Shown one piece after another: positions 13,174 through 55,428 of a stretch of 64,000 nt of DNA. A program made the position numbers and the translations under genes. The notes under the pieces were generated by a model. That model was not told where the DNA came from, searched no databases, and worked only from the letters and a program-made list of their open reading frames with translations. Positions within the stretch are counted from its first letter, which is position 1. Each line of letters begins with the position of its first letter. Origin of the DNA: Candidatus Enterousia sp. (GTDB lineage: Bacteria; Pseudomonadota; Alphaproteobacteria; Rs-D84); the NCBI GenBank assembly GCA_045586565.1, contig JAZNAO010000006.1, positions 1,457-65,456 on the forward strand, written 5' to 3'.

Positions 13174-14532
13174 TTGCAACAACAACGCGGTAATTTTTTA
13201 ATGCAGGCTCTGTTGGCATTGGGGGTAATTTTTGCATTTATGCCATTTATTACACGCCAATTGGCGGGGCGCGATACCGATGCGCGTATGTATTCTTCAA
13301 CGCGCCAGGTTGATATTGCGCAAAGTGCCGCCCAGATTTTTATTCGTGAAAATGCGAATAATTTACCATATGAAACAACGGTTATATCGGGAAATGATTT
13401 TGCTGATTTATTGGAACCGTATGGCCTGCCATTGGGTTTTGTGCCACGCACGGCCCTGGGCCAGAATATTGCGTTGGTAATCAATAAAACGCCAGTATCT
13501 GTATCTGCGTATCTGGAATTGTCTGGTGGTAATTTATCCGCGTTGGATATTGCAGAGTTGGCGCGTCGTATTGGATTTTATGCGATGGTCACAGATGATG
13601 GTGTAAATGTTGGTATTGAATTGTCGGATGTTTATTCTGATATTGTGCGTCGTAATGAACCGAATTTGGAAAACAGTGGTTTTTTAACCGATTTAGATAT
13701 GGGTGGTTTCGTATTTAATAATGCCGGCAATTTATTCGCTGTGCGTGGCACATTTGATAGTGCTCAATTTAACAGTATGACTGTAAATGGACTGGAATCG
13801 GGGCGCAAGGCAAAAAATACAATTGGCACCATGATTGCAGACAAGGCTGTGTTTCAAAACAAGTCTGGCGAATCAGCGCTAACTTTGACACGTGGGACAT
13901 TGTATGCAAATACTGTAAATGGTCGCACGTTATCTTTGTTTGGTGATACGGGAAATCTGGCTGTGAATGATGCGTCGGCATATGAGTTGGCGATGACTGC
14001 GGGTCGAACGTCTTTTTCGGGGCCTGAAAAATGGAATGTTCGCGGGAATTTGGTATCAGATCACATCAATTTTAGTGTTGAACGATTAGATGTGTCGTCG
14101 TATATCAGTGCAACACGCGGTCAAGATGTATTTATTGATTATGATACATTGGATTACAGCACTAAATCTGGAATCGAAGTCGGAACAATATACACATCAA
14201 ATATCACTGTGCGTGATCAGACGTCCAGTGCATTAAACGATGGTATGTCTGGGGCGGTTATTTTAGATGTGCGCCCAGGCGGCACAACACTGTTGCCGGA
14301 TGCGTTGGTTGGTGATATCAACAACGACGAATTTGCAATTATATCTGATGTGTTATCAGATGACGATGCAACGATTGCGTGTAAAAAAATAATAGATGAT
14401 TTCGAAGGTGTGTATAACAAGCAGTCTTTATCGCAATATTTAATATGTCAATATGTATATTGGCAACGTCTGGAAAAGCGCATCAATATCAAACAATGTT
14501 TAATGGCGGGTGGCAGTGACTGTGTTAAATAA
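13174..14532 (+). CDS. Large pilin-like protein 1 (452 aa; Gln instead of Glu at +5)
   Basis: TTG start behind a strong RBS (AGGAGGGGG). N-terminus MQQQRG|NFLMQALLALGVIFAFMPFITRQ. Paralogous to the next two ORFs (shared ...IG...DDG..YG and LDMGG motifs). Confidence 0.55.
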   Translation: MQQQRGNFLMQALLALGVIFAFMPFITRQLAGRDTDARMYSSTRQVDIAQSAAQIFIRENANNLPYETTVISGNDFADLLEPYGLPLGFVPRTALGQNIALVINKTPVSVSAYLELSGGNLSALDIAELARRIGFYAMVTDDGVNVGIELSDVYSDIVRRNEPNLENSGFLTDLDMGGFVFNNAGNLFAVRGTFDSAQFNSMTVNGLESGRKAKNTIGTMIADKAVFQNKSGESALTLTRGTLYANTVNGRTLSLFGDTGNLAVNDASAYELAMTAGRTSFSGPEKWNVRGNLVSDHINFSVERLDVSSYISATRGQDVFIDYDTLDYSTKSGIEVGTIYTSNITVRDQTSSALNDGMSGAVILDVRPGGTTLLPDALVGDINNDEFAIISDVLSDDDATIACKKIIDDFEGVYNKQSLSQYLICQYVYWQRLEKRINIKQCLMAGGSDCVK

Positions 14533-15751
14533 CAAGATATTTTCAGATAATTGTCATGGTGCCAGTGTTCTGGAAGTGTTGCTGGCAATGGCGATTGTTG
14601 CCATGGCGACACCTTTTGTATATCGGCAAATTGCCCAAACAAATCATACGATTCATGATATTGCAATTGCGCGCAAGATTATGTCGACGCGTGAATCCGC
14701 ACTAAACTTTATCAGAATAAATCAAGATAAATGGCCTGATAATGCCCAGATTAAATTAGATGATTCTGAATTGGATATTATATCAACAGATGCAGCAGCG
14801 GGCTTTATTGATAAATATTCTGTAAACGGCGCAGTTATAACAGATGTATATTTGGCATTTGTTACAGCAGATACAGGATTGCGGACAAATCAAATTGCCC
14901 GTCATATTGGTTCTGATGCGGCGGTGGTCAGCGATGATGGTGTTGCGTATGGTAATACTTGGGCGGTTGCAGCGCCTGATTTTATTCCTGGTGATTTAAT
15001 ATATCGTATATCGCGTGACATTGCGGGCACAGATACATCAATATATCTGCATCGTGGAACATCTGGTGATGATGGTTTAAATATTATGCAACGTGATTTA
15101 GATATGTCGAATCATCACGTTTATAATGTTGCGACTTTGAATGGAAAATCTGTTCGTGCACGAAATGCAAATACTGTGTTTGTCGACACAACAGATGTTG
15201 TTACCAACAGTGTATATTTTTCATCGGGTGCGAATTTAGAGAATGATTCATCTGTATTTGGTAATGTTCGTGTAACTGGTGATATATCTGGGTTTCGTAA
15301 TATTTATGCAGATAATTTAAACGGTCGTGGATATACGACCACAGGGCGCATTGTAACAGACCGCGCCACGATTATAGATACTATAAATGTTGCGAATGAC
15401 TTTGTGTTAAAATCTGATTCTACACGCACGGTCAGCGCATTTACAGGTATTTCGGCCAGTTCTGTTTTGACACCATACATATCTGCCGAAGAGATGATAT
15501 TTTATGATAATTTTGGATTGACTGTATCTGGTGAATTGCTGATGTCAACCTCAACACCATTAAAGTTGGGCAGTTGGTCATTCCCATCAACAAAGCCGCC
15601 TGTGTTTAAGTCTTTTAATGTGTCACGGGCAACACGTCCGTCAATGCCGTCGCGTAATGAATTTGATGCAGTAACCCGTCGTGGGTGGCAGTCAACAGAT
15701 ACACTAACCCCACCGGTCTTTCAACAAACATATATATCAACGATAAATTAA
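14510..15751 (+). CDS. Large pilin-like protein 2 (413 aa)
   Basis: GTG start region overlaps the upstream gene. N-terminus ...CHG|ASVLEVLLAMAIVAMATPFVYRQ with Glu at +5. Contains YLHRG...DLDMSNHHVYN. The exact start is uncertain. Confidence 0.55.
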   Translation: MAVTVLNNKIFSDNCHGASVLEVLLAMAIVAMATPFVYRQIAQTNHTIHDIAIARKIMSTRESALNFIRINQDKWPDNAQIKLDDSELDIISTDAAAGFIDKYSVNGAVITDVYLAFVTADTGLRTNQIARHIGSDAAVVSDDGVAYGNTWAVAAPDFIPGDLIYRISRDIAGTDTSIYLHRGTSGDDGLNIMQRDLDMSNHHVYNVATLNGKSVRARNANTVFVDTTDVVTNSVYFSSGANLENDSSVFGNVRVTGDISGFRNIYADNLNGRGYTTTGRIVTDRATIIDTINVANDFVLKSDSTRTVSAFTGISASSVLTPYISAEEMIFYDNFGLTVSGELLMSTSTPLKLGSWSFPSTKPPVFKSFNVSRATRPSMPSRNEFDAVTRRGWQSTDTLTPPVFQQTYISTIN

Positions 15752-15752
15752 A

Positions 15753-17069
15753 ATGACAAAACGATACGGAATTTTTTCAAAATACAATCAATCGCGTGGC
15801 GGCATGTTGATTGAATTACTGCTTAGTGTGGCATTGGCATCTGTGATAATACCATTCATTTTCCAGTATCAACAGAACGCGGTAACGCGTGCGCAAAATA
15901 TTGCGATTACAGAACAAATGTCGGATATTCAATCTGCATTGGAAAGATATATAATTGCCAATCGCGAAGATTTATTAAAAACTGTGGGTCGCACTATTAC
16001 GCGCATATCTATGTCTGATTTGGTGCCATATGGTGTCCCAGATTCTGTATTGACCGCCGGCGATGAATTGTTTCAACTGCGCATCTTAAAATCGTCAGAT
16101 TATGGTGACCAGTCTACATTACAGGGAATCGTTGTGCGAAACTCAGAAGATATATCCCCATTGCGAACACGTGAAATTGTGAATCTGTCTGGGGGCAGTA
16201 TGGGTTTTATTGATGACACTCATGCGTATGGTACATTTGGTACATGGCATACAGATACAGTTGACATGGGCATTGATATGGATAACGCGATTATTGAAAC
16301 GACACCTGTGAATCGTGACAACGCGTTGTATTTGTGGCGCATACCATCTGATGATGCGTCAGACTCGCGCATGATGACGGCGTTAAACCTGGGTGGGCAT
16401 GATATATTAAATTCATCGTTTGTAAATGCGAATCATATTGAATTTTCAGAAATGTTGTCTGCACCTGCGATTGCGACGGGCGATATTATCTTTCAAAACA
16501 GAACAACGATAGATTGGCCATTGGATGCATCCAACGCCAGTGTCGCGGGTATGTTATCTTCGGATGCCAAGAATATGGAAATAACCAATTCTTTGACGAT
16601 TGGTGACGTTGCAAAATTATCATCGTTGACGGCATCAAATTTATGGGTTGGCAATTTAACGTTGGGTGGTTTATCTTTGCACGGTGATGTAGAAGTCGCG
16701 ACCTTGGCCATAAATCAGACACTGGATATGACTGCCGGTCGTATCGAAGCAATGTTTGTATCTGTTGGTTTTGCAGGTTCTATGACGCCGCGTCTGGTTG
16801 TTTACGACAGAATCGAAGATTCAACGAATTCTGGATACTATTGGGATTTGAAATCAGAAATGGCAAGCTTTGCGGACGCAACGTTGGTTGAATTAAATCG
16901 TATGGCAACCTTGGCGTCATATTACGAAGGTGATGCGTCGACTGAATCTGGCCAGATTTTTGGTGCGGTATCTGCGAATAAAAATGCGACTGTATCTGAT
17001 TACATGAACGCGATAAATGAAATTCAAACGCGTGTTCGTGCCAAATATCGTCAGTTGAATTTGCAATAA
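15753..17069 (+). CDS. Large pilin-like protein 3 (438 aa)
   Basis: N-terminus ...SRG|GMLIELLLSVALASVIIPFIFQYQ with Glu at +5. Contains YLWR...LNLGGHDILN. Starts 1 nt after the upstream stop. Confidence 0.55.
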   Translation: MTKRYGIFSKYNQSRGGMLIELLLSVALASVIIPFIFQYQQNAVTRAQNIAITEQMSDIQSALERYIIANREDLLKTVGRTITRISMSDLVPYGVPDSVLTAGDELFQLRILKSSDYGDQSTLQGIVVRNSEDISPLRTREIVNLSGGSMGFIDDTHAYGTFGTWHTDTVDMGIDMDNAIIETTPVNRDNALYLWRIPSDDASDSRMMTALNLGGHDILNSSFVNANHIEFSEMLSAPAIATGDIIFQNRTTIDWPLDASNASVAGMLSSDAKNMEITNSLTIGDVAKLSSLTASNLWVGNLTLGGLSLHGDVEVATLAINQTLDMTAGRIEAMFVSVGFAGSMTPRLVVYDRIEDSTNSGYYWDLKSEMASFADATLVELNRMATLASYYEGDASTESGQIFGAVSANKNATVSDYMNAINEIQTRVRAKYRQLNLQ

Positions 17070-19117: not shown

Positions 19118-22100
19118 ATGTCATTTCTCAAAAATACAGTAAGTTTATTGGCGGTTTTCTGCGTTGTTCCGGCGGCTTTTGGTGCCACGGCGCGCCCCAG
19201 TGTTTTAAACACTGCGACGGCGGTTTCGGCAACTGGTGCGGTTCGTCGTGTGGCGATGCCAACGATGACATCGTATATCACTGGCTCGGCGGGTGGTGTT
19301 ACAAACAACAATAATGGCAACTCTGGTTCCAGCAACTTATTAGACAGCATTGAATGCATCGATGCATACACCGAATGTATCAAATCCGAAGATGTGTGCG
19401 GCGAAGATTTGTCAGAATGCACAACAAACGTATTGTTCCATGGCAAAATGCCCCAGTGTGTAAGCACCCTGGCCCAATGTGAACCGGATGGGGTTGATGC
19501 ATTATTTGGCACAAAGAATGTAACCGATTTGTCGTTCTATGATTCAAATAATTCTGCGGAATATGATGCCGAAGATGGTGAGGTTATTCGTTACACATAC
19601 CCAACAGACGGCAGTGTTCTGGGGCAAATGATTATATCTGCGGCGATTGAAAATCAGTATGATACACAAACATGCGTGAAACGTTATATGTCATGCTTGA
19701 ATAAAGACAGTGTTTGTGGTGCAGACTTTGAATTATGTACCGACGAACGTGAATTTAAAAAGCAGGCATTGTTCTGTGATTCAACCCTGGCCCGTTGCCA
19801 GGCAGACGGTGTTCGCGAATTATTCGGGGTTTCAAAATGGTCGCCACATAAAATGGGTGCGGATGGCAAAATCGAAGGTTCTTCCCGTGTTGGTGTGGCA
19901 ATCAAAGACGGTGCAGATTTGGCGGCGTTGAACGCGGTTTCTACCTGTTACAAGGTTGTTGAACAGTGTTTCTTGGGCGCATGTTCGGCCAATCCGTTGC
20001 GTTGTTTGGCGGGGTCGAATTTATCGACATTGACGGCGGCAAATGATATTGCGGCGGACGGTATCACAATCACATTGTCAAATGACAGTGCGCCATCAAC
20101 CCCAACAGACGTAAATCGTTATCTGCGCACATCGTGCCAGGATACAATTGGTGCAAATAAATTCTGTCACATGACATTCTTGGGCAAAAATCCAAGTAAG
20201 AAAGACTTGGCGGATGTAGATGTCCAATCAGAAGTCTTTGACGATGCAATCAGCGAACGTAAAAAATACGTTGAATCAAAAATCCAAGATTTGATGACAC
20301 AGTTCGATAAACGTGCCAAGGATAAATGTGTTGAAACAATTCGTTCATGCGCAATGCGTTCCTGTGGCGAAGGTGTCGGTTCTGTATGTTATTCATCTGT
20401 ATATGGCGCGAATGGCGGAAATACAATTGCGGGTCCGGCCACACGTCCAGATATCAAAACGGCATGTGAATCTGTTGTAAATACCGATGTGAATTGCCAA
20501 TATGCATATTCAACTGTTATAGATAATGGTGTGTATTCATACAATTACATCCAAAATTCTGTATTTGATACATTATTCCCAGAATATGCTGCCGACAAAA
20601 CAAACAATGATCCAATCGGTGTAATCGGGTCGTTAAATTCGTCCCTGTCGACCAGTTATAATGCCGCTGCTCTGGCGCAAATGAAGAAGCAATGTCAATC
20701 TGTCGCGACCAGCTGTGTTAAATCAATGTGTGGCACGGATTACCAGAATTGCTATCGCAATCGAACAGATATCTTGTCTGATTTGACCAATACGGATAAT
20801 GCAAAGTTTGATACGTCAATGAACAAGGTTGGTGGTGTTCTGGATTATACAATTGTATTGGGATTGTGCATGAACACGGTTAAAAACGCCGATGTATGTG
20901 ATGAACACCTGAAAATCCAAAAGGCCAAATTAGATTTGGAAAAGACAACGGAAAATGTATGGGGAACACAATCGTCTGTCCGTGATGGCTGGATTGATGC
21001 TGGTGGTGCCAAGAAGTTTGAAGAAGGGATGGTTCATTCCAAAGACGAAAATGGTGCCGATTTATGCACAAATGCTGCAGGGGACCAAGGTGTTTGCTAT
21101 GACGTTGATGCCAATGGTGATGTTTTTAATAAACCTGTGATGATATCTGCAGACCTGTATAAAACGAACCAGGCCACAACATCATTATTCCGTGAATTGT
21201 TGGTTGATTTAGAATACGAAGCCCAGGCGAAGTATAACGCCAAATTGACGAAACAACAGAATATGTGTCTGGCGGCAAATTCTGGTGGTGTTGTTGGCGC
21301 TGGCGATATGGGTTCAACATTCATGTGGGCAAAATTGAAAAGGGGCAAGGTTCCGGCCGATTATTCAATGAATGGTTTAACCAGTGACCAAATTGTCCCA
21401 AGTAATGAATTGTATGGTTCATTCTGCCGTGTGCGTGTGACACTGCAATCCACAGACCCAACCGTATCTGAATGGTTAAACAGTACCGAAGGTCAGAAAT
21501 ATGCAACGCGTTATTTTGCGGCGGGTGATGCATTTACATGCGGTTCATGGATACCTGTTGGCGATGAAGGAACATGCCATGACGATACCGCCGCGGGCAT
21601 CAGAAGATGCAAAGGTGGCTCAGGATTACGTGGCCTGGCGCAAAAGGTTGGCGAAGCCACATATACATACGACAAACAGAAATCCGACACAATTCTGCAA
21701 ACAATGTTGCCAGTGGTTGGATTGCTGGGTGGTGGTATTGGTGGTGCATATCTGGGCGCCGGCATCGAAGACGGTTCTGTATTCGGCGGTCTGACGGGTA
21801 AAAAGAGCACAAAATCAGACAGCAAGACAGCAAAGACTGCAAACGATAGATGTTCGAATGCCATCGATATGGCCAAAACAAAATTAGCGGAAGCAAATCC
21901 TAGCCTGGAAAGTGTAAGAAGTTTAGCCAAAACAGCGGCTGATGAATTAGAAGACATGGACAAGGTTGTGTACAAAAACCTGGAGTATTGGCCAGATGGT
22001 ATGACAACTACTGTTACTGAAACTATTTCTAAAGGAGAAGGGGAGCAAACTAAATATTATTGTGGCGGGACAGAAGTCAATACGAAAGTACCAGCACGGT

Positions 22101-22432
22101 GCGTTGGTGATAAGTTATTGGCCGATGCAAGAACAGAAATCACACCCATTTTGAATAGACTAGAAGGTTATTGTGAATCTGCGGTCGAAGACGAAGATGC
22201 CAATGCTAAAAAGAAAAAGGGTGCCGCCGCCGCGGGGGCTGTGACAACCGGTGTGATCAGCAGTGTTCTGACATGGGGCGTCACACGCAGCATCATTGAT
22301 GCACAACGCACCAAAGAACAACAGGCCGCAATTGATGAATTCATGGATTCATTGGGTTCAAAAATCAATTGTGTTGTCGGTGGGGATTCCATTGCGGTAT
22401 ATGGCGACACATTGGTCACCAGTATGGAATAA
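19118..22432 (+). CDS. Large Cys-rich secreted/membrane-anchored protein (1104 aa), unknown family
   Basis: RBS GGAG..AAGGGG and signal peptide ...VVPAAFG|A. Contains duplicated Cys modules, a Gly-rich hydrophobic segment (LPVVGLLGGGIGGAYLGAGI) and a second C-terminal hydrophobic segment. Followed by a strong terminator. Confidence 0.7.
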   Translation: MSFLKNTVSLLAVFCVVPAAFGATARPSVLNTATAVSATGAVRRVAMPTMTSYITGSAGGVTNNNNGNSGSSNLLDSIECIDAYTECIKSEDVCGEDLSECTTNVLFHGKMPQCVSTLAQCEPDGVDALFGTKNVTDLSFYDSNNSAEYDAEDGEVIRYTYPTDGSVLGQMIISAAIENQYDTQTCVKRYMSCLNKDSVCGADFELCTDEREFKKQALFCDSTLARCQADGVRELFGVSKWSPHKMGADGKIEGSSRVGVAIKDGADLAALNAVSTCYKVVEQCFLGACSANPLRCLAGSNLSTLTAANDIAADGITITLSNDSAPSTPTDVNRYLRTSCQDTIGANKFCHMTFLGKNPSKKDLADVDVQSEVFDDAISERKKYVESKIQDLMTQFDKRAKDKCVETIRSCAMRSCGEGVGSVCYSSVYGANGGNTIAGPATRPDIKTACESVVNTDVNCQYAYSTVIDNGVYSYNYIQNSVFDTLFPEYAADKTNNDPIGVIGSLNSSLSTSYNAAALAQMKKQCQSVATSCVKSMCGTDYQNCYRNRTDILSDLTNTDNAKFDTSMNKVGGVLDYTIVLGLCMNTVKNADVCDEHLKIQKAKLDLEKTTENVWGTQSSVRDGWIDAGGAKKFEEGMVHSKDENGADLCTNAAGDQGVCYDVDANGDVFNKPVMISADLYKTNQATTSLFRELLVDLEYEAQAKYNAKLTKQQNMCLAANSGGVVGAGDMGSTFMWAKLKRGKVPADYSMNGLTSDQIVPSNELYGSFCRVRVTLQSTDPTVSEWLNSTEGQKYATRYFAAGDAFTCGSWIPVGDEGTCHDDTAAGIRRCKGGSGLRGLAQKVGEATYTYDKQKSDTILQTMLPVVGLLGGGIGGAYLGAGIEDGSVFGGLTGKKSTKSDSKTAKTANDRCSNAIDMAKTKLAEANPSLESVRSLAKTAADELEDMDKVVYKNLEYWPDGMTTTVTETISKGEGEQTKYYCGGTEVNTKVPARCVGDKLLADARTEITPILNRLEGYCESAVEDEDANAKKKKGAAAAGAVTTGVISSVLTWGVTRSIIDAQRTKEQQAAIDEFMDSLGSKINCVVGGDSIAVYGDTLVTSME

Positions 22433-23521: not shown

Positions 23522-25591
23522 GTGAATTTAATGCCAGAAAATCTTAACAACGAACAAAAGAAAGCCGTTGAAACGACGTCTGGCCCATTGTTGGTGCTGT
23601 CAGGTGCAGGAACCGGTAAAACACGCGTGCTGACCACACGTATTGCATACATATTAAATTGTGGTCTGGCCCAACCGTGGCAGGTTTTGGCCCTGACCTT
23701 TACGAACAAGGCTGCAAACGAAATGAAAAATCGTCTGGCCGATTTGTCGGATGGTGCGTGGTATTCTGGTGACATTTGGTGTGGTACGTTTCATTCGATA
23801 TGCCTGAGAATTTTGCGCAGTAATGCCGAACGTGCGGGATTACGCCGTGACTTTATAATCTTTGGCGAAGACGACCAGAAATCAGTTATCAAATCATTGT
23901 TGTCGTCATCAACCAAGACACCTGGCGATTATGTTGAAGAATTTTCTGCGATAAAAGACAAAGGCCTGATTGCGTTAAAAAATACCGATAAATTATTCAA
24001 TGCATATAACGCGGAATTGACACGATTAAACGCGGTGGACTTTGGTGATATTATTTTAAAAGTCTTGGAATTATTTGATAAAAATCCAGACATATTGTCG
24101 CGCTATCAAAATCAGTTTAAATATATCTTGGTTGATGAATTCCAAGATACTAATAATGCCCAGATGGAATTTCTGTGCATGTTGACACGCGGTATTGATG
24201 TGCCAAATATTTGTTGCGTTGGTGATGATGATCAATCAATTTATTCATGGCGCGGTGCAGAAATAAAACACATATTAAATTTTGAAAAAACATTCCCAGA
24301 CGCGCAAATAATCCGCCTGGAAACTAATTATCGCAGTACGGCAAATATTCTGGGCGTGGCAAATTCTTTAATCCGACATAATGCAGGGCGCCTTGGCAAA
24401 GATTTGCGCGCCACAGATACAGGACCGGGCGAACCTGTATATGTTTTAACATTGCCGGGCGATCGGGATGAGGCGCGCATTATCGCCGATGCAATATTGC
24501 GCGATGATACAAACGATTTTACAAAATATGCATTACTTATCCGTGCCGGCAGTCTATCGCGTATATTCGAAGAAGAATTTGCAGCACGTGGTATTCCATA
24601 CAAACTAATCGGTGCGACAAAATTCTATGACCGTATGGAAATACGTGATGCGATTGCATATTTGCGCCTGTTGGTATATCCGTTTGATGATATATCTTTC
24701 CTGCGTGTGATTGCAAAGCCACGTCGTGGATTCGGGGACAAGGCAATTGAAAAATTGCGTGCATCTGGCACGAATTTAATGACGGGATTACGTAATGCTG
24801 CGCTGGCGCCTAAGTTGCGCGCGGCGGCGGATGAATTTTTATCTGCATTTGATTTTGATTGGGCGGCGATGCCACCACGTGATGCGGCGCAAAAATTGTT
24901 AAATGATTCTGGCTATATGAAAATGTGGGCAGATTCCAAAGATGTCGATGCCCCCGACAGAATTGCAAATATTCGCGAACTGTTGACGGCGGTAATTTCC
25001 AAATATGACACCATCCCAGAATTCTTGGAACAGGCCGCATTAATGATGACCGATGATAATGATTCCACCGACAATCCGCAAAATAATAACACGGTCAGTA
25101 TTATGACTATACACGCGGCCAAGGGGCTGGAATTTGATACGGTGTTTTTGCCTGCCTGGGAAGAAGGTATTTTTCCAAATGACAAGGCAATAAACGAAGG
25201 CGCCATCGAAGAAGAACGTCGCCTGGCATACGTGGCAATAACGCGTGCACGCCGTCGTTGTATTATATCAAATGCCATGTCGCGTATGGTGTTTGGTTCG
25301 CGTCAGTATAATTGCCCCAGTCGTTTTATCACGGAAATGGATAATAAGTTTTTAGATTTCCAGGGTGGTGCCCCGCGAACATATTCGCCATACACACATA
25401 TATCACGTTCGTATGACCCCGCGCCAAAACCGCGCCCAACAAAATCCGCCACAATGGTTGGCAAATTGGTCACGCACAATGAAATGGGGTCTGGTGTTGT
25501 CATCGAAGACAGTGGCACAATTTTAACAGTCGCATTTAAATCGCGTGGCATAAAAAAAGTCGCCCGTGATTTTGTGAAAACAATTGGATAA
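23522..25591 (+). CDS. uvrD: UvrD/Rep-family DNA helicase II
   Basis: Motifs GAGTGKT, DEFQDTN, NYRS, TIHAAKGLEFD and VAITRAR. The start could be GTG 23522 or ATG 23531. Confidence 0.9.
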   Translation: MNLMPENLNNEQKKAVETTSGPLLVLSGAGTGKTRVLTTRIAYILNCGLAQPWQVLALTFTNKAANEMKNRLADLSDGAWYSGDIWCGTFHSICLRILRSNAERAGLRRDFIIFGEDDQKSVIKSLLSSSTKTPGDYVEEFSAIKDKGLIALKNTDKLFNAYNAELTRLNAVDFGDIILKVLELFDKNPDILSRYQNQFKYILVDEFQDTNNAQMEFLCMLTRGIDVPNICCVGDDDQSIYSWRGAEIKHILNFEKTFPDAQIIRLETNYRSTANILGVANSLIRHNAGRLGKDLRATDTGPGEPVYVLTLPGDRDEARIIADAILRDDTNDFTKYALLIRAGSLSRIFEEEFAARGIPYKLIGATKFYDRMEIRDAIAYLRLLVYPFDDISFLRVIAKPRRGFGDKAIEKLRASGTNLMTGLRNAALAPKLRAAADEFLSAFDFDWAAMPPRDAAQKLLNDSGYMKMWADSKDVDAPDRIANIRELLTAVISKYDTIPEFLEQAALMMTDDNDSTDNPQNNNTVSIMTIHAAKGLEFDTVFLPAWEEGIFPNDKAINEGAIEEERRLAYVAITRARRRCIISNAMSRMVFGSRQYNCPSRFITEMDNKFLDFQGGAPRTYSPYTHISRSYDPAPKPRPTKSATMVGKLVTHNEMGSGVVIEDSGTILTVAFKSRGIKKVARDFVKTIG

Positions 25592-25617
25592 AAAAACGGC
25601 ATGACGCCGTTTTTTTA
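25590..25617. terminator. Bidirectional terminator between uvrD and the VirB6-like operon
   Basis: A-run, then ACGGC-ATGAC-GCCGT hairpin, then T-run. Confidence 0.65.
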
Positions 25618-26910
25618 TTTGCGTGATTCTTTGATAATTTTATACCATTCTTTGACAGACTTTTTTGCATCGCCCCATAATCTGGTCACGTCTGATTTTA
25701 ATGATGTGCCCATTGAAGAATCTATTGCGCCACCTATGTCTGTTGCAATTTGTGATGCATGACTGGCCAGATACCATGTCAACGCCATCACAAACATAGA
25801 TGTCCATATATTTGGATTATCAAATTCTGGCACCAACCCAGGATTTGTTAAATCCATAACGCCCGATAATAATGCTGTGCAAATTGCAATAACAATTGAC
25901 AATGTGACAAAGTGCAGGGCTGCATTGATAAAACGCATAATTTGTGCCTGTAAAGATTCTGTGGAAAATAACTTTACAAAACCATTATAAATATCACCAA
26001 CAATTCCCTTGTATGATGTTTGGCCCACGCACTCTGCAATTGCAGTAAAAGGCAACATTATAATCCCCAAGAATAAATCTGCAATTACACCAAATGCAAC
26101 AAATGCAAATTTCCATGCCAGATATATAAACCCACCAATCATTGCGCCACCACACAGGAATGAAAACATACTGCGTCCGATACCGTATGCCATCCATTTC
26201 CATCCAACCGCCACCGCCGTATAACAAAATCCGGATAATCGTGTTGGAATACACATAATGTTTGCTGCGGCTTCTGGGGGCAATAAATTAGATTCAGATA
26301 TATGTTCTGTGGCATACATATGAATCGCTGTGCATGTGTCTGGGATTTGTGCGCCTGCAACACTGGCTACTGCATTTAAAATTAAATCAGATATCAGTGA
26401 TGCAACGCTTAAAATTGGACTCATCACCATCATAAATGTTTCTGCCGGTCCGACATTTAACACCACCACCCACATTGCGGTTATTGCGCCTTTTTTCAGC
26501 ATTGATTTTATTGTGTCTTTAGTGTCGGCTTTGCCGGTGATTATATTATATGCCTCTAACCCCATCCAGAATGCATACATCAATATGATAAATATGATTG
26601 TAAACCGAACCAATGACGAATCCAGTATATGCCCGATATGTGAAAACGCATTCATAAATGCCAGACCGATTTTCGCTTCTATTGGGACAAACCCCACATC
26701 AAAATTTTGTATTGTATTTCCGTGAAATTTTTCAAAATCCCCAGACAGTTGCCCTATAAACAATTCTCGGTTTGCTTCCGTGGTCCATACCCCATTATCA
26801 CCGATATCTGGTAACGGTACATTTGTTTCGCCAAATGCCGGCACCGCCATAACCGTTGCGATTGCAACAAGTGCTAAATACCTACAAAGATGTTTAAATA
26901 CCTTTATCAT
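25615..26910 (-). CDS. TrbL/VirB6-like polytopic membrane protein, paralogue 4 (431 aa)
   Basis: Signal peptide and multiple TMs. The layout (hydrophobic helix - charged loop - helix ...) is shared with the four neighbours and resembles VirB6. 4-nt overlap with the upstream gene. Confidence 0.5.
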   Translation of the reverse strand: MIKVFKHLCRYLALVAIATVMAVPAFGETNVPLPDIGDNGVWTTEANRELFIGQLSGDFEKFHGNTIQNFDVGFVPIEAKIGLAFMNAFSHIGHILDSSLVRFTIIFIILMYAFWMGLEAYNIITGKADTKDTIKSMLKKGAITAMWVVVLNVGPAETFMMVMSPILSVASLISDLILNAVASVAGAQIPDTCTAIHMYATEHISESNLLPPEAAANIMCIPTRLSGFCYTAVAVGWKWMAYGIGRSMFSFLCGGAMIGGFIYLAWKFAFVAFGVIADLFLGIIMLPFTAIAECVGQTSYKGIVGDIYNGFVKLFSTESLQAQIMRFINAALHFVTLSIVIAICTALLSGVMDLTNPGLVPEFDNPNIWTSMFVMALTWYLASHASQIATDIGGAIDSSMGTSLKSDVTRLWGDAKKSVKEWYKIIKESRK

Positions 26911-28352
26911 TTATTTGTCACCACATCTGCAATTGTATCTGTAATTTTTAATGGCGCACGCCCAGTTGTTTTTATCAAATCACCTGTCCATTTACCAAAA
27001 TCAAACAATTCTGGACTGTCTTTGCCCAACATCTTGTCAATCTTTGGGCTGATTGCATAAAAGTACAAGAAGAACAAACATGCCATCATCAACAAGAAAT
27101 CCCATCCATCATCCATAAAATTAAATGCGTTTGGATACTTTCTTTCAACTTCTGCCTTGCGTGCGGTAAAGCAATTTTTAAATTTATCTTTGTCCATTTC
27201 GCCATCTACCAAAGCAACCTGTTCACATGTTGTAAACACATTCATTACAGATAATGTTTGTGCGTCTGGATTTTCGGCATGCATACCCATCATTGGTGGT
27301 AATATTGCCGTATATCCATCATTTGGTCCTGGGAAAAACGCATCTGCGGTGTATGATACCGTCGCGTATATCACCAATGTTTTCAATGTAATGGCGATAA
27401 TTCTTACTGCTGATGTAACCAGCATATTTATTGCATTCCCCAATAACCCATTTGCCTTGGCCCAGACGCCTTCGAACGCATATGATGCCAATAACAGTGG
27501 CAAAAATATAACCAAGAATACCAGTTTAAATACCACAGATAATATTTGAAAAAACAAATCAAAACCAATCAGCAAGAACATCAATACCAATGCCAATCCT
27601 GCGACCCACGTAAACGCACCGCCACCCATACCCATCCAAGAATAATTCATCAGTGAAAATCCGCCTGCGGCACCTGCCAGCATTACACTGTTTATATTTC
27701 CAACAACGCACATAAATGGTTGCAGTATTGGATTTAAAATATCATTTTCGTTTTCAGAATATTTATCATTTCTCAAATTGCATTGTGCAGAATCACTGAT
27801 ACCTGTGGCGGCCATTGATAATTCTGCCCCAAGATACATAACTGGTGTAATTGTTAGTTGTGATACTGTCTTTAAAGCGCCTGTGCCGCCCATCCCCAGC
27901 ATTCCCATTACTGCACCAACAATCAGCACACGTGCACCCTGTTTCCAGATTTTGTCGACCAGCGCATTTATTTCCAATTTCTTTTCTGTGTCGTCTAACT
28001 TCATGGCTTCTTTTGCAGAATTTAACATATGCTGAACAATACTGATGACAATAAACAACCCAAATCCCAACACCATCAATATCCAAATATTGTTTACCAT
28101 TAAATTCCAGAATTTGTCGGCTGCATTCCCGATGACTGTGAACAAATCAGAAATATATCTGCACATAAAACATCCGTTGACGTTTGAAATATTCCCGTCA
28201 GTTGCCCCCACGGCCGTTAAAAAGTTATCCAAACTGGTATACGTAATGGATGTACCGCCCAAAGATGACGACAAATACCATATCCCCAGCCCTAATGCGG
28301 CGATGATAAAGAATGCTTTGATGGCCATAACAATCAATTTTGCCTTTAACAT
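26907..28352 (-). CDS. TrbL/VirB6-like polytopic membrane protein, paralogue 3 (481 aa)
   Basis: Polytopic, with the N-proximal motif CFMCRYISDLF shared with two paralogues. Translationally coupled to its neighbours. Confidence 0.5.
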   Translation of the reverse strand: MLKAKLIVMAIKAFFIIAALGLGIWYLSSSLGGTSITYTSLDNFLTAVGATDGNISNVNGCFMCRYISDLFTVIGNAADKFWNLMVNNIWILMVLGFGLFIVISIVQHMLNSAKEAMKLDDTEKKLEINALVDKIWKQGARVLIVGAVMGMLGMGGTGALKTVSQLTITPVMYLGAELSMAATGISDSAQCNLRNDKYSENENDILNPILQPFMCVVGNINSVMLAGAAGGFSLMNYSWMGMGGGAFTWVAGLALVLMFLLIGFDLFFQILSVVFKLVFLVIFLPLLLASYAFEGVWAKANGLLGNAINMLVTSAVRIIAITLKTLVIYATVSYTADAFFPGPNDGYTAILPPMMGMHAENPDAQTLSVMNVFTTCEQVALVDGEMDKDKFKNCFTARKAEVERKYPNAFNFMDDGWDFLLMMACLFFLYFYAISPKIDKMLGKDSPELFDFGKWTGDLIKTTGRAPLKITDTIADVVTNK

Positions 28353-29542
28353 TACTTACCTTCCTTGTCGTCGTCTTTTTTTAGCACTATTTTTGCGGTA
28401 TTTGTAACCGCGCCCACCGCATTCTTGGTCAGCCCCATAATTGCATCTGCGACCTGTTCGCCATATTCTGTTTTTTCTGCGACACCAAATGCGTCCAGTA
28501 TCATTTTTGTAATCGCTTTGGATTGGTCGTAAATATAATTTAAAACGTAAATTAAAATACTGCAACTCATCAACGTCATGGATTCCAAATTTTCTGTATT
28601 CAAATCTGCGTTGTATAATTCACCTGTTGTAATTGCATTCATCAAATCGTTTACAGATACATCCGATGCACTAAAGAACTTGGCGATTACAACCATAATA
28701 ATCGTATACGTTATAACGATTGATCCCAAAGACACAATCGAATTTACCAAATTCTTTATTTGATTTATCCCGACCCCAGATCCCAATTTTTTTATCCATT
28801 CTGGTACATGTTCTGCGCCAGTGAACGCCATTGTCATCAATGATAGTGGGAAAAAGAATGCAAAGAACGCCATTGCAACAATTGCGTCTGCAAATCTGCA
28901 ACAATATCGGAAAAATAATTTTATAAATCCCCATGACAGATAAAATCCAATAAAGAACAACATGATATGCTTTAACAAACTGCCAATTCCGGTCAAAGCC
29001 TTCCATGAAAAAGCGTTATCTACGACCGCAATCCCCAGTTTTATATATGATTGGAATTGTGTGATTGTCGTCTGCATCAACAATAATATTTTATTACGCA
29101 GTTCTGGCCTAAAAAAACTATCATCTGTCATTTCTTTTGGGGTATATGGAACTTTTTCTTCGACCTGAACTGTATCCAGTTGGATTATGTTTTGTGTATA
29201 AACCGTTGTAACAGATGCAATGGGTTCGAATATTAGTGTAGATACCATTCGTGGTAATGTGACACCCGCCCCCAGCAGTCCGACAACAACAATCGAATTT
29301 AAAAATACTTTTTGTATGGATTTCTTAAAGAATAGGTCGTCCATCCCTTTTTGCATATTTTTCATCCATGCATTTGACACATACAATGCAAATAATGCAA
29401 TCAACAACATCAGACATAATTTTGCAAAATTATCATATATATACGCGGCTGCCAAAGACACAATCTGAAACAGACGGTCAAATATTGGACAACTCCAACA
29501 TTGGATTGAATTGTCTATCAAAGATGATGTCCATTCGTTCAT
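28352..29542 (-). CDS. TrbL/VirB6-like polytopic membrane protein, paralogue 2 (396 aa)
   Basis: N-terminus ...CWSCPIFDRLFQIV, followed by a TM bundle. Overlaps both neighbours. Confidence 0.5.
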   Translation of the reverse strand: MNEWTSSLIDNSIQCWSCPIFDRLFQIVSLAAAYIYDNFAKLCLMLLIALFALYVSNAWMKNMQKGMDDLFFKKSIQKVFLNSIVVVGLLGAGVTLPRMVSTLIFEPIASVTTVYTQNIIQLDTVQVEEKVPYTPKEMTDDSFFRPELRNKILLLMQTTITQFQSYIKLGIAVVDNAFSWKALTGIGSLLKHIMLFFIGFYLSWGFIKLFFRYCCRFADAIVAMAFFAFFFPLSLMTMAFTGAEHVPEWIKKLGSGVGINQIKNLVNSIVSLGSIVITYTIIMVVIAKFFSASDVSVNDLMNAITTGELYNADLNTENLESMTLMSCSILIYVLNYIYDQSKAITKMILDAFGVAEKTEYGEQVADAIMGLTKNAVGAVTNTAKIVLKKDDDKEGK

Positions 29543-30801
29543 TTCTTTTTAAACCATCCCAATGCGCTATTAAATGCGCTGGTTGTTTGTTTGATACCTT
29601 TCCACATTGTTGTGGCGTCACCATTGACCTGTCTATACAGTTTATCCATACCGCCACCGATATAATTTTCCAGTTGCTTTTGTGTCATCTGATAGATTTT
29701 ATACATCAAAAAGAATGTCAATATTGCCGACATCCATGTGACAGAATGTGTTCCAAATCCAATTGCATTTACAACTTCTGGTGTGGGCAGATTGCTGTAT
29801 GCGCTGCCCCCGGCGGCAGAAACAAATACCGAAGAATTCCATCGGAACAGTGCTTTGATTACCGCCAAATTGATGCACAGTATAAACGCACATGCAATCA
29901 TAGTGATAATCAATTGTTGTAACGCCTTGGTAATACCGCTGAATGCGGGCCAAACATCGAACCATTTATCACTGGACTTGGTCACGTATGTCAGCACATA
30001 GAACGGATATAAAATCAGTTGTACACCGAAATTAAATATTCCCTGTATAATCAGCATTGCCATAAACAGGTTACTGCCGATAAATGTGATTATTAGAATA
30101 ATCCCGGTCAATACATTCATTAAATCTTCGCCACCATGTGGAATCAATGTCAACAGCCCGCGCAATCCACGTGTCAAGAAATCAAATCCGCGTTTTATAA
30201 TCTGGTTGTTTGCGTGTGATAAATCAGATATTGGTTGCACTAAAAATTCGCATGATTCCGGATTCAACCACGCTTTTTCTGTAATGCTGGTTGGGCAATC
30301 TATTTTTTGTGCGTTGGTTCCTGTTTCGTTGATTGTCTGTGTTATTTCATGAGTATATACCGACCCCAGTTTTAAAAAAGGATTTACCAACCACTGCGTC
30401 AAGAACATCGGTGACAGTTGTAATAAAAATACAATTGCGATAAATGCGCGAAATCCAGGTTTTAGAACTTTTGTTGCGATGTCCATTGGACCGGCTTTGC
30501 CATCAGCGATTTCACCGCCCCCCGATATGTTAAAGAACGCCAGCACTTCTTTCGGGGCAAACATTTTTAACAGTCCGATTACAATAGTTATAACGAAAAA
30601 TAATATAACCAATCCTTGAATAATTCCGTTGCCCACAAAAAATTCATATCCGCCCGTGGCAACCATCATCAGCGCATCCAATATCATCGGCACAAAAGGT
30701 GCCAAATTTAATGCGTCAACAATATCTGCATGTGCGGCCCCTGGTGCGCAGAAAACCGCGACAAAACATAAGGCTGATAATATTTTTTTTAGTATATTCA
30801 T
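29539..30801 (-). CDS. TrbL/VirB6-like polytopic membrane protein, paralogue 1 (420 aa)
   Basis: Signal peptide ...CAPGAAHA|D and a polytopic body. First gene of the minus-strand four-gene operon. Confidence 0.5.
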   Translation of the reverse strand: MNILKKILSALCFVAVFCAPGAAHADIVDALNLAPFVPMILDALMMVATGGYEFFVGNGIIQGLVILFFVITIVIGLLKMFAPKEVLAFFNISGGGEIADGKAGPMDIATKVLKPGFRAFIAIVFLLQLSPMFLTQWLVNPFLKLGSVYTHEITQTINETGTNAQKIDCPTSITEKAWLNPESCEFLVQPISDLSHANNQIIKRGFDFLTRGLRGLLTLIPHGGEDLMNVLTGIILIITFIGSNLFMAMLIIQGIFNFGVQLILYPFYVLTYVTKSSDKWFDVWPAFSGITKALQQLIITMIACAFILCINLAVIKALFRWNSSVFVSAAGGSAYSNLPTPEVVNAIGFGTHSVTWMSAILTFFLMYKIYQMTQKQLENYIGGGMDKLYRQVNGDATTMWKGIKQTTSAFNSALGWFKKK

Positions 30802-30869
30802 TCTCTCTTTTTATTTTTATCTTTTCAATTATATCACATTTAATGCAAAATATGGTATACTTAAAAACA

Positions 30870-32159
30870 ATGAATTGGTTAAAAAAATTTTGGATAATGT
30901 TTTTGTCCTTTCTGCCGATTGGGGCAGGGGCGGTTGCGCCATTTGTGATAAAGGGGTTGATTGGTGCGACGGCGGTTGCTGGATTTTCCATATATCGCAA
31001 TATGTCGCCTGTAAATATGGCAGACGCATTGGAATTTTTTTCATCGTGTTGGACGTGTCAGATGTTTTCAGACATTATGGCAACAATGTCGAATATATTG
31101 CCCCCTATATATGACGGTTTGGGTGGCGCGATAATTCCGTTTGCGATAATTCTGACGGCGGTATGGTTTGCGTGGCAGATTGTCAGTGATCATATGAATG
31201 CCAAAACGCCAGAAGCATGGTCTTTTACAACAAAATTTAGCACGCATTTAATAAAATTGACAGCGGTGTGTGCACTGCTGGCGGCGCCAATTCCGCGCAT
31301 GGTGACCCAAATTGCGATTGAACCGATATTTAATGTTGGTTTATCACTAAATCGATTGGTGGCGCATGACGATAGTTTTGATTCGTGTGTTGTGTCGACT
31401 GCCTTGGTTGATCCAACATCAGACAGTGCAGATGCGGCCAATTCTGGGGTGTTTTCGCCAAAGTTACGTCATAATTTAACATGTGAATTGGCGGGTGTGC
31501 ATCAAATGACAGGTCTGGGGATGACCGTTGGGTGGACAATGTTAAATATGTCATTCGATTCGGAATATATGCATAAAATTATGTGGGCTATCCCGATTTT
31601 TCCGAACGTGATACTGTTTGTTGCGGGCGCATTGATTGTGGGGTTATTTTTCTTGGCTTTGCTGCCGATACCATTGTATTTCTTAGAAATATTCATAAAG
31701 CTATCATTGGATATGGTGATGTTACCACTGATGTTGTTGGGTTGGTTGTTTGATGGATGGGCAATATCCCTCAAAGGGGCAGGTAAAACGATTCGTTCTA
31801 TTATTGATGACGTGATAAATGGGACGCTGGGGTTGGCGGTGACGGGTGTATTTGTATCATTTGCGATAATGTTTTTGAATGCGATATTCGGTGATTGGAA
31901 TGGTGCATCTGTTTTATCGACTGCATTGACCCAAAATGATTCGAAAATTTTGATAGACGCCTTGATGATGCGCAATGACAGTTTGGTTACTATAATTCTG
32001 ATGGGATTGTTTATGGCTGCGTTTATGACAATGATTCCTGCCCTGGCGAAGTCTTTGTTTAGCATAACTATATCCACAGAATTCTATGATTCGGCAAAAA
32101 AGAACCTTGATACACTGTGGAAAGGCTTGAAAAACGTATACGCACAAATAAAAAAATAA
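30870..32159 (+). CDS. TrbL/VirB6-like polytopic membrane protein, paralogue 5 (divergent)
   Basis: The ORF is open from 30699. ATG 30870 (MNWLKKFW...) was chosen to avoid overlapping the divergent gene; ATG 30843 or 30852 are possible. Contains the motif CWTCQMFSDIM and a polytopic body. Confidence 0.5.
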   Translation: MNWLKKFWIMFLSFLPIGAGAVAPFVIKGLIGATAVAGFSIYRNMSPVNMADALEFFSSCWTCQMFSDIMATMSNILPPIYDGLGGAIIPFAIILTAVWFAWQIVSDHMNAKTPEAWSFTTKFSTHLIKLTAVCALLAAPIPRMVTQIAIEPIFNVGLSLNRLVAHDDSFDSCVVSTALVDPTSDSADAANSGVFSPKLRHNLTCELAGVHQMTGLGMTVGWTMLNMSFDSEYMHKIMWAIPIFPNVILFVAGALIVGLFFLALLPIPLYFLEIFIKLSLDMVMLPLMLLGWLFDGWAISLKGAGKTIRSIIDDVINGTLGLAVTGVFVSFAIMFLNAIFGDWNGASVLSTALTQNDSKILIDALMMRNDSLVTIILMGLFMAAFMTMIPALAKSLFSITISTEFYDSAKKNLDTLWKGLKNVYAQIKK

Positions 32160-32226: not shown

Positions 32227-32736
32227 ATGACAAAGTTTCCGATTCTTTATTGGTCACGCAGAACCGCTGGGGACAGCGAATATCAGTTGGCGCGCAAGGT
32301 TATAAATAATGCCACGGGTGTTATGCCGGACGTGTTGACTGATGATATTGATATTGCGGCGATATTGGCGCAAAATCCAAATGCGACGATTTACTATCCT
32401 GTGTTTTGCGGTTCAACAGGTTGGTGGGGTGAATTATTGGGGTGTGATGCGGTTGTCGTTGATAAAATGATAATATCCCCCGAATGTCAATTGATGGTTA
32501 TCGAATCGCAAAAAAATGCCAAACCGCGTGGCACGAATCAGTTATTGGCGGCTGAAATTTACCCGACCAGTGGTTTTTTCAAGAAAATGAATTCTGGGAT
32601 TGCGACGGTTGCAGATATGTTGGCGACGGACGCCGGGACAATATTGGCATTATTCTCTGGCAAGAATCAGAATCAGTTTATAAATGTATTGGAATCGACG
32701 GGCAATTCATATCTGGGATGCATTGGTCGATATTAA
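32227..32736 (+). CDS. Hypothetical protein (169 aa)
   Basis: An ORF of good length in an otherwise empty interval. I recognise no motif. Confidence 0.4.
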   Translation: MTKFPILYWSRRTAGDSEYQLARKVINNATGVMPDVLTDDIDIAAILAQNPNATIYYPVFCGSTGWWGELLGCDAVVVDKMIISPECQLMVIESQKNAKPRGTNQLLAAEIYPTSGFFKKMNSGIATVADMLATDAGTILALFSGKNQNQFINVLESTGNSYLGCIGRY

Positions 32737-32811: not shown

Positions 32812-33024
32812 ATGAAACAAGGAATTCATCCTGAATATCACGAAATCAACGTCACCAGAACAGATGGCAAGACGGTAAAAATGTATTCTTCTGTTAAAAA
32901 AGACTTGGTTTTGTCTACTGATAATTTGAACCATTCTGCCTGGACAGGTCAGCGTTCTAATGCCGGTGACAAGGGTCAACGCGCTGCTGATTTCAAGGCG
33001 AAATTTGCAGGATTCAAATTTTAA
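32812..33024 (+). CDS. rpmE: 50S ribosomal protein L31 (Cys-less type)
   Basis: MKQGIHPEYHEI...HSAWTG...FKAKFAGF matches the L31 pattern. RBS AAAGG lies upstream. Confidence 0.9.
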   Translation: MKQGIHPEYHEINVTRTDGKTVKMYSSVKKDLVLSTDNLNHSAWTGQRSNAGDKGQRAADFKAKFAGFKF

Positions 33025-34090: not shown

Positions 34091-34358
34091 ACATTTGTCG
34101 GTGGGATTTTTCACCGATGGGGTGTGGAAACCCGTTATCTAAGCGTCTATGCACGATTGCATAACGCGCCAATGGCGTGTTTTTTGTGCAGTGTATGGAT
34201 GAAAATTTTTTTCTCCTGATCTTATGTGGTCAGGAGGGCTGCGAATATATTGAATAAGCACACAATTCTTAGATATTGTTTCCAACCTCCTGGCCACCTA
34301 TCTTTTATGGTGGTTTTTGTTTAATTTGCGTATGCAGAACGAAAGGGAGGAAAGTAAT
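34091..34358 (+). promoter_or_regulatory. Conserved structured leader (attenuator-like), copy A
   Basis: Hairpins at 34098-34117 and 34120-34133, and hairpin plus T-run at 34164-34185. Alternative segments: S1 34213-34221, S2 34226-34238, S3 34286-34298, S4 plus T5 34309-34318. Conserved in copies B and C. Confidence 0.6.
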
Positions 34359-35102
34359 ATGCAAAAATTTTTAAAACTAACCGGCGTATCAGTTTTGGCA
34401 ATCGTTGCCGCAACGGGCGCCAATGCCGCGGGATACACCTGTGAAGAATTGATTGAATACACAGCATGTAATGATGGGTGGTATTTAAACGATGGTGATT
34501 GTATAGAAAGCACAACATGTCCATCGGGCAGTTATTTACGTCCGTTTTGTTCAGTGAGCGATTGTGGTGTGAGTTATGATTCTGAGACCGAAGAATATAC
34601 TTGTTGTGATGGTGATTATGTTGCAAACCTGGAATGCATACAATGCCCATCTGTTGGTCTGACTGACAAAGACGGCAAAGTGGTGTCGGTTAAATCACAG
34701 CCTGGCTCAATGGGTGTTGGTTCGTGCTATATTGACCCGAATGCATATTTCAAGGATAGCACGGGGACATATCATTATAAGTCCAATTGTTCTGTGCGTT
34801 TCTGGGAAACATCCCCAGACACAGAAGAAGAATGTACCAGTCTTGGTTTTGAATGGGTATATACAAGTGGTGAATCAGATTCTTATTATGTTTGTGCGTT
34901 GAACATGCGGATTAGTGAACAGTTGGGTTTAATAAAGACAGAAGAAGAATGTAACGCGGCAGCTGAAAAAATATATGGCTTGGTATGGAAAGATGAAGGA
35001 GATTATTATTATTCCAGATGCGAAACCATAAACTACGAAGAGAGTTACTTTATTTTTAGGGATGAATGGTATGTTTTTGGTGATCCTATTTCTCACTCCT
35101 AA
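34359..35102 (+). CDS. Secreted Cys-rich protein, family member A (247 aa)
   Basis: RBS GGGAGGAAAG and signal peptide ...ATGANA|AGYTCEELIEYTAC. Shares the N-terminal module and the CP..GLTDKDG...SC.ID...F.D..G.Y.YK..C module with the protein at 55429. Confidence 0.75.
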   Translation: MQKFLKLTGVSVLAIVAATGANAAGYTCEELIEYTACNDGWYLNDGDCIESTTCPSGSYLRPFCSVSDCGVSYDSETEEYTCCDGDYVANLECIQCPSVGLTDKDGKVVSVKSQPGSMGVGSCYIDPNAYFKDSTGTYHYKSNCSVRFWETSPDTEEECTSLGFEWVYTSGESDSYYVCALNMRISEQLGLIKTEEECNAAAEKIYGLVWKDEGDYYYSRCETINYEESYFIFRDEWYVFGDPISHS

Positions 35103-55156: not shown

Positions 55157-55428
55157 TCTTTTGTCGATGGGATTTTTCATCGATGGGGTGTCAAGACCCG
55201 TTTCATTGGCGTTCATGCACGATTGCATAACACGCCATGTGGCGTATTTTTTATGCGATATGTGTATGGGTGATAAATTACTCCTGACCCGTGGTCAGGA
55301 GGGCTGTGAATATATTGAATAAGCACACAATTCCAATGATTGTCTTGAACCTCCTGGCCACCTTTTGTGAAAAACGGTGGTTTTTTGTTTATTTTGGCAA
55401 ACAAAACAAAGGAAAAGGAGAGTTTGTT
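55157..55428 (+). promoter_or_regulatory. Conserved structured leader, copy C
   Basis: H1 carries a compensatory change (TCGATG/CATCGA). Hairpin plus T-run at 55232-55252. Segments: S1 55281-55289, S2 55291-55303, S3 55350-55362, S4 plus T6 55376-55386. Confidence 0.6.

Follow-up and report, generated by a model that had tools for sequence, protein, structure and literature searches.

What are the five adjacent membrane protein genes of Candidatus Enterousia that lie at positions 25615-32159 of the 64-kb stretch analysed here (hereafter the window), and what might they do for the cell? We refer to them as A to E; D, C, B and A lie on the minus strand and E lies on the plus strand. We predict that all five very probably belong to the TrbL/VirB6 superfamily, as paralogues that separated long ago and have diverged greatly. 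In the type IV secretion system (T4SS), VirB6 is a polytopic core subunit of the inner membrane. Candidatus Enterousia belongs to the order Rs-D84, whose members have genomes mostly below 1 Mb and are thought to be obligate symbionts or parasites (PMC12306168).

Relationship to the TrbL/VirB6 superfamily

The gene E product was modelled with AlphaFold2. A first run with 19 close orthologues gave an unusable model (pLDDT 55.8), which was kept out of the fold search. The model made with 118 diverse sequences has a pLDDT of 83.3 and a pTM of 0.78. When it was compared with the PDB using Foldseek, ranks 1-5 were all TrwI/VirB6 chains of the R388 T4SS at probability 1.00; the identity of the TrwI chains was confirmed, and later unrelated matches had probabilities of at most 0.16. 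The fold search was specific for VirB6 and for DotA. On the strength of this model, E is predicted to have a VirB6 fold. The first-pass annotation, made from the DNA letters, had read the five proteins as VirB6-like and had looked to VirB6 structures for a comparison. The comparison comes out in favour of that reading, with TrwI chains at the top five ranks. The same annotation would have abandoned the reading had there been no PF04610 match, no likeness to a VirB6 structure, and no T4SS gene in the genome; on the structural side, E resembles TrwI.

Profile searches link the family to proteins that standard models do recognise. A profile of E matched 208 proteins in a library of 1.84 billion representative proteins (E<=0.001). 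Beyond the Enterousia orthologues, the matches include members of the C and B families and many long proteins of 430-1500 amino acids; C orthologues were recovered across the whole library. PF04610 (TrbL/VirB6) is present in 23 of 60 distant matches (best E 1.2e-8), and an M23 peptidase domain in 13 of the 60. One distant relative scores 32.7 bits against PF04610, compared with a cut-off of 25.9. Four relatives were examined one by one; in each of them PF04610 (model positions about 80-190) matches the region corresponding to E residues about 225-345.

The families were also aligned by hhalign with a profile of these distant relatives. The results were 99.4% for A (E 5.6e-22, 288 columns), 99.4% for B (E 1e-21), 100% for C, 98.9% for D (E 3.1e-17, 314 columns), and 100% for E, with alignments covering 256-336 columns. 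Controls with reversed profiles reached at most 14%, so the match does not merely reflect hydrophobic composition. The relatives' profile contains some representatives of the C and B families. No close orthologue of A or D was seen among its sequences (the best A and D matches there are only 1e-5 to 1e-6), and the results for A and D are therefore probably independent. BLASTP also connects B (2.8e-8) and D (4.7e-5) to a PF04610-annotated 458-amino acid protein of L084, a locus from another uncultured alphaproteobacterium.

All five proteins have six or more hydrophobic helices and contain an LP(L/F) helix motif. The proline of this motif, Pro286 of E, is the sole invariant column across the 118 sequences. 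It is followed in E by Trp292, and a conserved tryptophan after LP(L/F) is present in B, C, D, and E, though not in A. By analogy, this residue recalls the essential tryptophan described for VirB6 (PMC2653234).

The first-pass annotation also described the five genes as paralogous, and as amplified. Profile comparisons establish the paralogy (the C family aligned to the E family at 96.8%, E 2.5e-10), but the relationship is much weaker than amplification implies. BLASTP between the five is marginal, with best values of 5e-6 for C and E and 1e-5 for B and E, and several pairs gave nothing useful. The word amplified is misleading for copies that are ancient, share less than 25% identity, and are constant in number and order across the genus.

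Several results weigh against the placement in this superfamily. The PF04610 scan proposed in the first-pass annotation fails for all five proteins even at E<=10, and the NCBIfam T4SS models find none of the five at that threshold either; nor did these scans give a meaningful match to any other family. The structure model covers E, and the fold of A to D is deduced from profiles. Aligned with 121 TrwI-family sequences, the broad alignment reaches a weak 47% (E 1.9e-4) and the single families stay below 2%; the alignment with a single TrwI sequence is weak as well. The aligned region is the same each time (E 275-403 with TrwI 170-275). Among PDB sequences, the profile of close E orthologues found no match and the broad profile found TrwI only at E 2.2. 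The likeness to classical plasmid VirB6 by profile comparison is thus only suggestive, and the five proteins appear to be too diverged for the current PF04610 family model.

Conservation of the five-gene set

One genome per species was scanned, which gave 219 loci, and the best 80 were kept for comparison. Most of these 80 are titled Candidatus Enterousia or Alphaproteobacteria bacterium and come from ruminant, bird, or human gut; a few records bear the older label "uncultured Rickettsiales". The order A- B- C- D- E+ is identical in all 73 complete loci, each from a different species. This points to an ancient, fixed set of paralogues and not to a recent amplification. Neither the number of copies nor their arrangement varies within the genus, and this probably holds for the whole order Rs-D84.

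Compared with the window proteins, the orthologues have a median identity of 50% for A (present in 73 species), 63% for B, 54% for C, 61% for D, and 65% for E. The flanking housekeeping genes uvrD, dnaQ, and suhB have medians of 72-85%. The five genes evolve somewhat faster than these neighbours, yet none has ever been lost. Each protein has between 56 and 112 positions with a conservation of 97% or more. The G+C content of the five genes (0.38-0.41) is close to the typical 0.41-0.44 of the window. An origin as a mobile element was considered, and we reject it in view of conservation, composition, and context.

Gene E has more than 900 database homologues, which come from metagenome-assembled genomes of Alphaproteobacteria. 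Its orthologues in the database are 429-438 amino acids long. None of 120 listed E homologues has a Pfam domain, and all source names shown are "hypothetical protein".

Cysteine motifs and signal peptides

Three of the five proteins contain a CxxC motif at the places originally described. These are CWTC in E (31047-31058, plus strand), CWSC in C (29489-29500, minus strand, residues 15-18), and CFMC in B (28161-28172, minus strand, residues 61-64), and each is 100% conserved among about 75-80 orthologues. A and D lack CxxC; each is predicted from its sequence to begin with a Sec-type signal peptide. The predicted peptide of A is cleavable (MIKVF...AVPAFG, cut before E), and that of D ends in ...GAAHA before D.

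Within the loop that follows the second core helix, A (Cys193/Cys220), B, D (Cys169/Cys184), and E (Cys173/Cys205) have two cysteines in common, and this pair is fully conserved. Gene B encodes three cysteine pairs, all fully conserved. At least 90% of the distant relatives also keep the CxxC and the loop pair, so these features mark the branch and not Enterousia alone. A and D belong to the same superfamily yet have no CxxC, and we therefore regard this motif as an added feature of one branch, not as one that defines function. The lysine-rich C-terminal tail with W(K/G)(G/D) that had been attributed to all five does not apply in full to C, whose tail has no tryptophan.

Arrays in other uncultured Alphaproteobacteria

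Arrays of four or five such genes were found in loci L081, L083, L084, L086, and L089 of other uncultured Alphaproteobacteria. L081 has five tandem genes between suf genes and mgsA/gidA. L083 and L084 have four genes each, the last of which is fused to an M23 peptidase. The five tandem genes of L086 are all on one strand, with best matches to E, D (weak), C, B, and A, which is the Enterousia order. L089 is from another genus and keeps the divergent four-plus-one layout, with flanking genes that differ.

The array of L084/L087 adjoins virB8, virB9, a gene for a 1138-amino acid protein, a virB10 of 1475 amino acids, and virB11. In one lineage at least, this branch of VirB6 is thus tied to a T4SS. 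Together with the PF04610-positive relatives, it lends support to the original description of diverged, unusually short VirB6-like subunits in a tandem array of the Rickettsiales kind.

The T4SS of L084/L087 (GCA_047975765.1, contig JBKEEF010000014.1) is very divergent; its VirB9 has 541 amino acids. The VirB11 of L084 has matches in more than 120 database clusters, all at least 86% identical, apparently from its own heavily sampled lineage. Some E orthologues of other genera (P0121, P0123, P0126, and P0129, from L088 and L089) are longer, at 510-714 amino acids. In these, a Gly/Ser-rich linker and an extra C-terminal domain follow the VirB6-like part.

Predicted function and alternative explanations

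We predict that the five are inner-membrane proteins whose N-terminal helix and large loop, the one that follows the second core helix, face the periplasm. Both the CxxC (B, C, and E) and the cysteine pair of the loop (A, B, D, and E) would then be periplasmic and would probably be disulfide-bonded. VirB6 has a published N-out topology. A periplasmic N-terminus fits this topology as well as the signal peptides of A and D and the anchor helices of B and E.

The five proteins may form the platform at the base of the stalk of a chromosomally encoded T4SS like that of Rickettsiales, possibly by joining one copy of each paralogue into a mixed pentamer. A structure study of the R388 T4SS reportedly places a VirB6 pentamer at the base of the stalk, and the pentamer, taken with the recurring five-copy arrays, makes a mixed pentamer an attractive idea. 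The remaining T4SS genes would lie elsewhere in the genome, and through this system the bacterium would carry out contact-dependent exchange with a partner or host cell. That the five proteins work in a T4SS whose other genes are elsewhere is the explanation that we favour and consider reasonably probable; what we infer in it are the partner genes, the mixed pentamer, and the disulfides.

The genomic context speaks against a role in a T4SS. No VirB2-5, VirB8-11, or VirD4 was found in the window when its open reading frames (ORFs) were scanned with Pfam and NCBIfam. The first-pass annotation had noted no other T4SS gene nearby, and this holds, as neither collection identifies a T4SS family in any further ORF of the window. 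No T4SS gene lies within 10 kb of the cluster in the 80 species, whose flanks vary by rearrangement, and none lies near it in two further genera. When the T4SS proteins of R388 and L084 were compared by phmmer with the ORFs of the 80 loci and the window, we obtained only FtsK-like matches to VirD4 and weak ATPase matches; the label FtsK-like is based on protein length and on the P-loop relationship of FtsK and VirD4. The flanking genes of the 80 loci that have no counterpart in the window appear by N-terminal sequence to encode proteins of the housekeeping type, for example MutS-, PPDK-, and FtsK-like ones, and include no obvious T4SS candidate of VirB4 size. Our literature search found no paper on type IV secretion in Rs-D84, and the main text of the Rs-D84 genome analysis never uses the word "secretion", and so does not mention a T4SS (PMC12306168). 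The vir genes of Rickettsia are scattered over five islets (PMC2653234), and for this reason the local absence of T4SS genes is weak evidence.

The same context also speaks for a different explanation, in which proteins with a VirB6 fold act without a canonical T4SS. They could form an inner-membrane channel or platform of their own for the uptake of metabolites or DNA, or could be part of another envelope machine, for example one that involves the pseudopilin genes 9 kb away. In addition to the lack of T4SS genes in the window and near the cluster in more than 80 genomes, the arrays of L081 and L086 also sit among housekeeping genes. The window itself contains three pseudopilin-like genes (13174-17069) and comEC (5600-7546), and Rs-D84 genomes are reported to lack standard transporters for sugars, amino acids, and peptides (PMC12306168). 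Against this, scattered T4SS genes are the rule in Rickettsia (PMC2653234), so that local absence says little, and the L084/L087 array adjoins virB8-virB11. We know of no VirB6-family protein that acts outside a T4SS. We consider a function apart from a T4SS unlikely, although it is the alternative that survives best. Somewhat less likely still is its most specific form, in which Enterousia has no other T4SS subunit at all and the proteins make an asymmetric, stand-alone pentameric channel with one of each paralogue, which uses periplasmic disulfide or CxxC chemistry for uptake from a partner by a cell that has no standard transporters. If true, such a channel would be the first VirB6-family machine outside a T4SS.

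The alternative offered in the first-pass annotation was a new membrane protein family, unrelated to VirB6, whose CxxC carries out a redox or metal-dependent step. The absence of a direct PF04610 match would fit, as would the complete conservation of CxxC in B, C, and E and its conservation in at least 90% of distant relatives. We find this very hard to reconcile with a fold search of E that is specific for VirB6 (TrwI) and DotA, with the PF04610 matches to the aligned region of 23 of 60 relatives, and with A and D, which lack CxxC and are in the same superfamily. Equally implausible is a reading of the genes as what is left of a decaying integrated conjugative element, VirB6-like genes with no current function. 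In its favour, the genes are isolated from other T4SS genes and evolve faster than their housekeeping neighbours (50-65% against 72-85% median identity). Against it, all five frames are intact and their order is unchanged in 73 of 73 species, in a lineage that is under strong genome reduction; 56-112 residues of each protein reach a conservation of at least 97%; the G+C content of 0.38-0.41 is close to the 0.41-0.44 of the window; no integrase or relaxase was found nearby in the family scans of window ORFs; and other genera keep the layout between flanking genes that differ.

Animal and human guts commonly harbour Candidatus Enterousia and other members of its order. These bacteria are presumed to rely on other cells, and we know of no mechanism that has been proposed for the interaction. 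About 6.5 kb of such a small genome is given to five VirB6-like genes that are never lost, and a T4SS-type envelope machine is a candidate for this role. Tandem VirB6 paralogues are already known from Rickettsiales. New here are their presence in a gut-associated order with genomes below 1 Mb, a divergence beyond the reach of Pfam, the compact proteins, the cysteine features, and a five-gene layout kept across the genus and in L089. There is also an annotation gap, as current family models miss a large VirB6 branch with CxxC and the loop cysteine pair. The mixed pentamer is worth testing, since arrays of four or five copies occur here, in related uncultured lineages, and in Rickettsiales. None of this amounts to a new principle unless the proteins do act apart from a T4SS.

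Gene layout and neighbouring genes

Gene D (29539-30801, minus strand, 420 amino acids) is the first gene of the minus-strand operon. It is followed by C (28352-29542, minus strand, 396 amino acids), which begins almost directly with CWSC, then by B (26907-28352, minus strand, 481 amino acids), a putative VirB6-superfamily paralogue with an N-terminal anchor helix, and by A (25615-26910, minus strand, 431 amino acids), the last gene of the D-C-B-A operon. Successive genes overlap by exactly 4, 1, and 4 nucleotides, so D, C, B, and A are probably translationally coupled on one strand. Gene E (30870-32159, plus strand, 429 amino acids) is divergently transcribed and is the best conserved of the five. 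The ORF list agrees exactly with the coordinates and overlaps first given for the five genes.

The 68-bp region between D and E (30802-30869) is presumed from its position to hold both promoters; matches to promoter consensus sequences are weak. At the other end, between A and the convergent uvrD (23522-25591), there is a bidirectional terminator-like hairpin (25585-25621) with a stem of 14-16 bp and T runs on both strands. It appears to close the D-C-B-A operon. On the far side of E are a hypothetical gene for a 169-amino acid protein (32227-32736, plus strand), directly downstream, and rpmE (32812-33024). The three flanking genes are thus as originally listed.

No family model matches the 169-amino acid protein at thresholds up to E<=1. 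Its conservation exceeds that of E, with a median identity of 83% and orthologues in 78 of the 80 species, and its gene is absent from the loci of the distant relatives. We considered it as a fused or linked partner of E and rejected this, because the C-terminal extensions of the longer E orthologues differ from it and the gene is missing in the relatives.

The three tandem genes at 13174-17069 (plus strand) encode proteins of 452, 413, and 438 amino acids with no Pfam match. Their N-termini resemble those of type IV prepilins, with a glycine followed by ASVLEVLLAMAIV, MLIELLLSVALA, and NFLMQALLALGV, respectively. They look like pseudopilins of unusually large size, and the only NCBIfam match is a weak one to the GspI N-terminus. 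The ComEC-type gene in the same window (5600-7546, minus strand) matches the Pfam Competence family at E 8.9e-53, and hints at a capacity for DNA uptake in this reduced genome.

The window also contains genes for cysteine-rich, apparently secreted proteins at 19118-22432, 34317-35102, and 55291-56376, all on the plus strand. The first protein has 1104 amino acids, a signal peptide, and a C-terminal membrane helix; the others have 261 and 361 amino acids. The 361-amino acid protein matches the eukaryote-type Ephrin_rec_like family at E 1.5e-11, above the cut-off. These may be surface or host-contact proteins.

Comparison with known systems

DotA of the Legionella Dot/Icm type IVB system (PDB 9NGY) is the other fold found with E. 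It is much larger, with 857 residues modelled, and has no sequence similarity to E. None of the Dot/Icm partner genes is present here, and by sequence E does not belong with DotA.

TrwI, the VirB6 of R388 (PDB 7O3V, 8RT9, and 8RTD), is about 12% identical to E. Both have an N-terminal helix followed by a transmembrane helix, and both have a helix motif in which a proline precedes a tryptophan (LPLMLLGW in E and GPLFILALIW in TrwI). E differs in its extra N-terminal anchor helix, its larger loop with a cysteine pair, and its CxxC. TrwI assembles as a homopentamer and is the product of a single gene, which lies on a plasmid within a complete T4SS operon. Amplified trwI genes are known in Bartonella; we saw several Bartonella TrwI clusters, which fit this amplification.

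A close published parallel in organisation is RvhB6a-e of the Rickettsiales, where four or five genes that encode VirB6 domains stand in tandem on the chromosome; in Rickettsia there are five, roughly 80% divergent from one another (PMC2653234). As in Enterousia, all copies are kept in the reduced genomes of host-dependent Alphaproteobacteria, and the other T4SS genes are not necessarily adjacent. RvhB6a-e are from the order Rickettsiales, whereas the genes described here are from Rs-D84, which is associated with the gut lumen. The Rickettsia proteins have 670-1150 amino acids with long flanking regions, whereas the Enterousia proteins have 396-481 and are essentially the bare domain. The rvhB6 array adjoins virB3-virB4; here no virB3-virB4 is adjacent, and one gene is divergent. 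All five copies of Rickettsia typhi score with PF04610, and the Enterousia five do not. Three of the Enterousia copies have a conserved CxxC, unlike RvhB6a-e, and the rest of the Enterousia T4SS is something that we infer.

The long VirB6-like proteins of the uncultured gut Alphaproteobacteria L081, L083, L084/L087, and L086 are alike in belonging to the branch that bears CxxC and the loop cysteine pair, and in being encoded in arrays of four or five genes, in L086 with the apparent order E-D-C-B-A. They differ in length (430-1331 amino acids), and several are extended at the N-terminus by an M23 peptidase or in other ways. Some of them give a PF04610 match, and the array of L084/L087 stands beside virB8-virB11.

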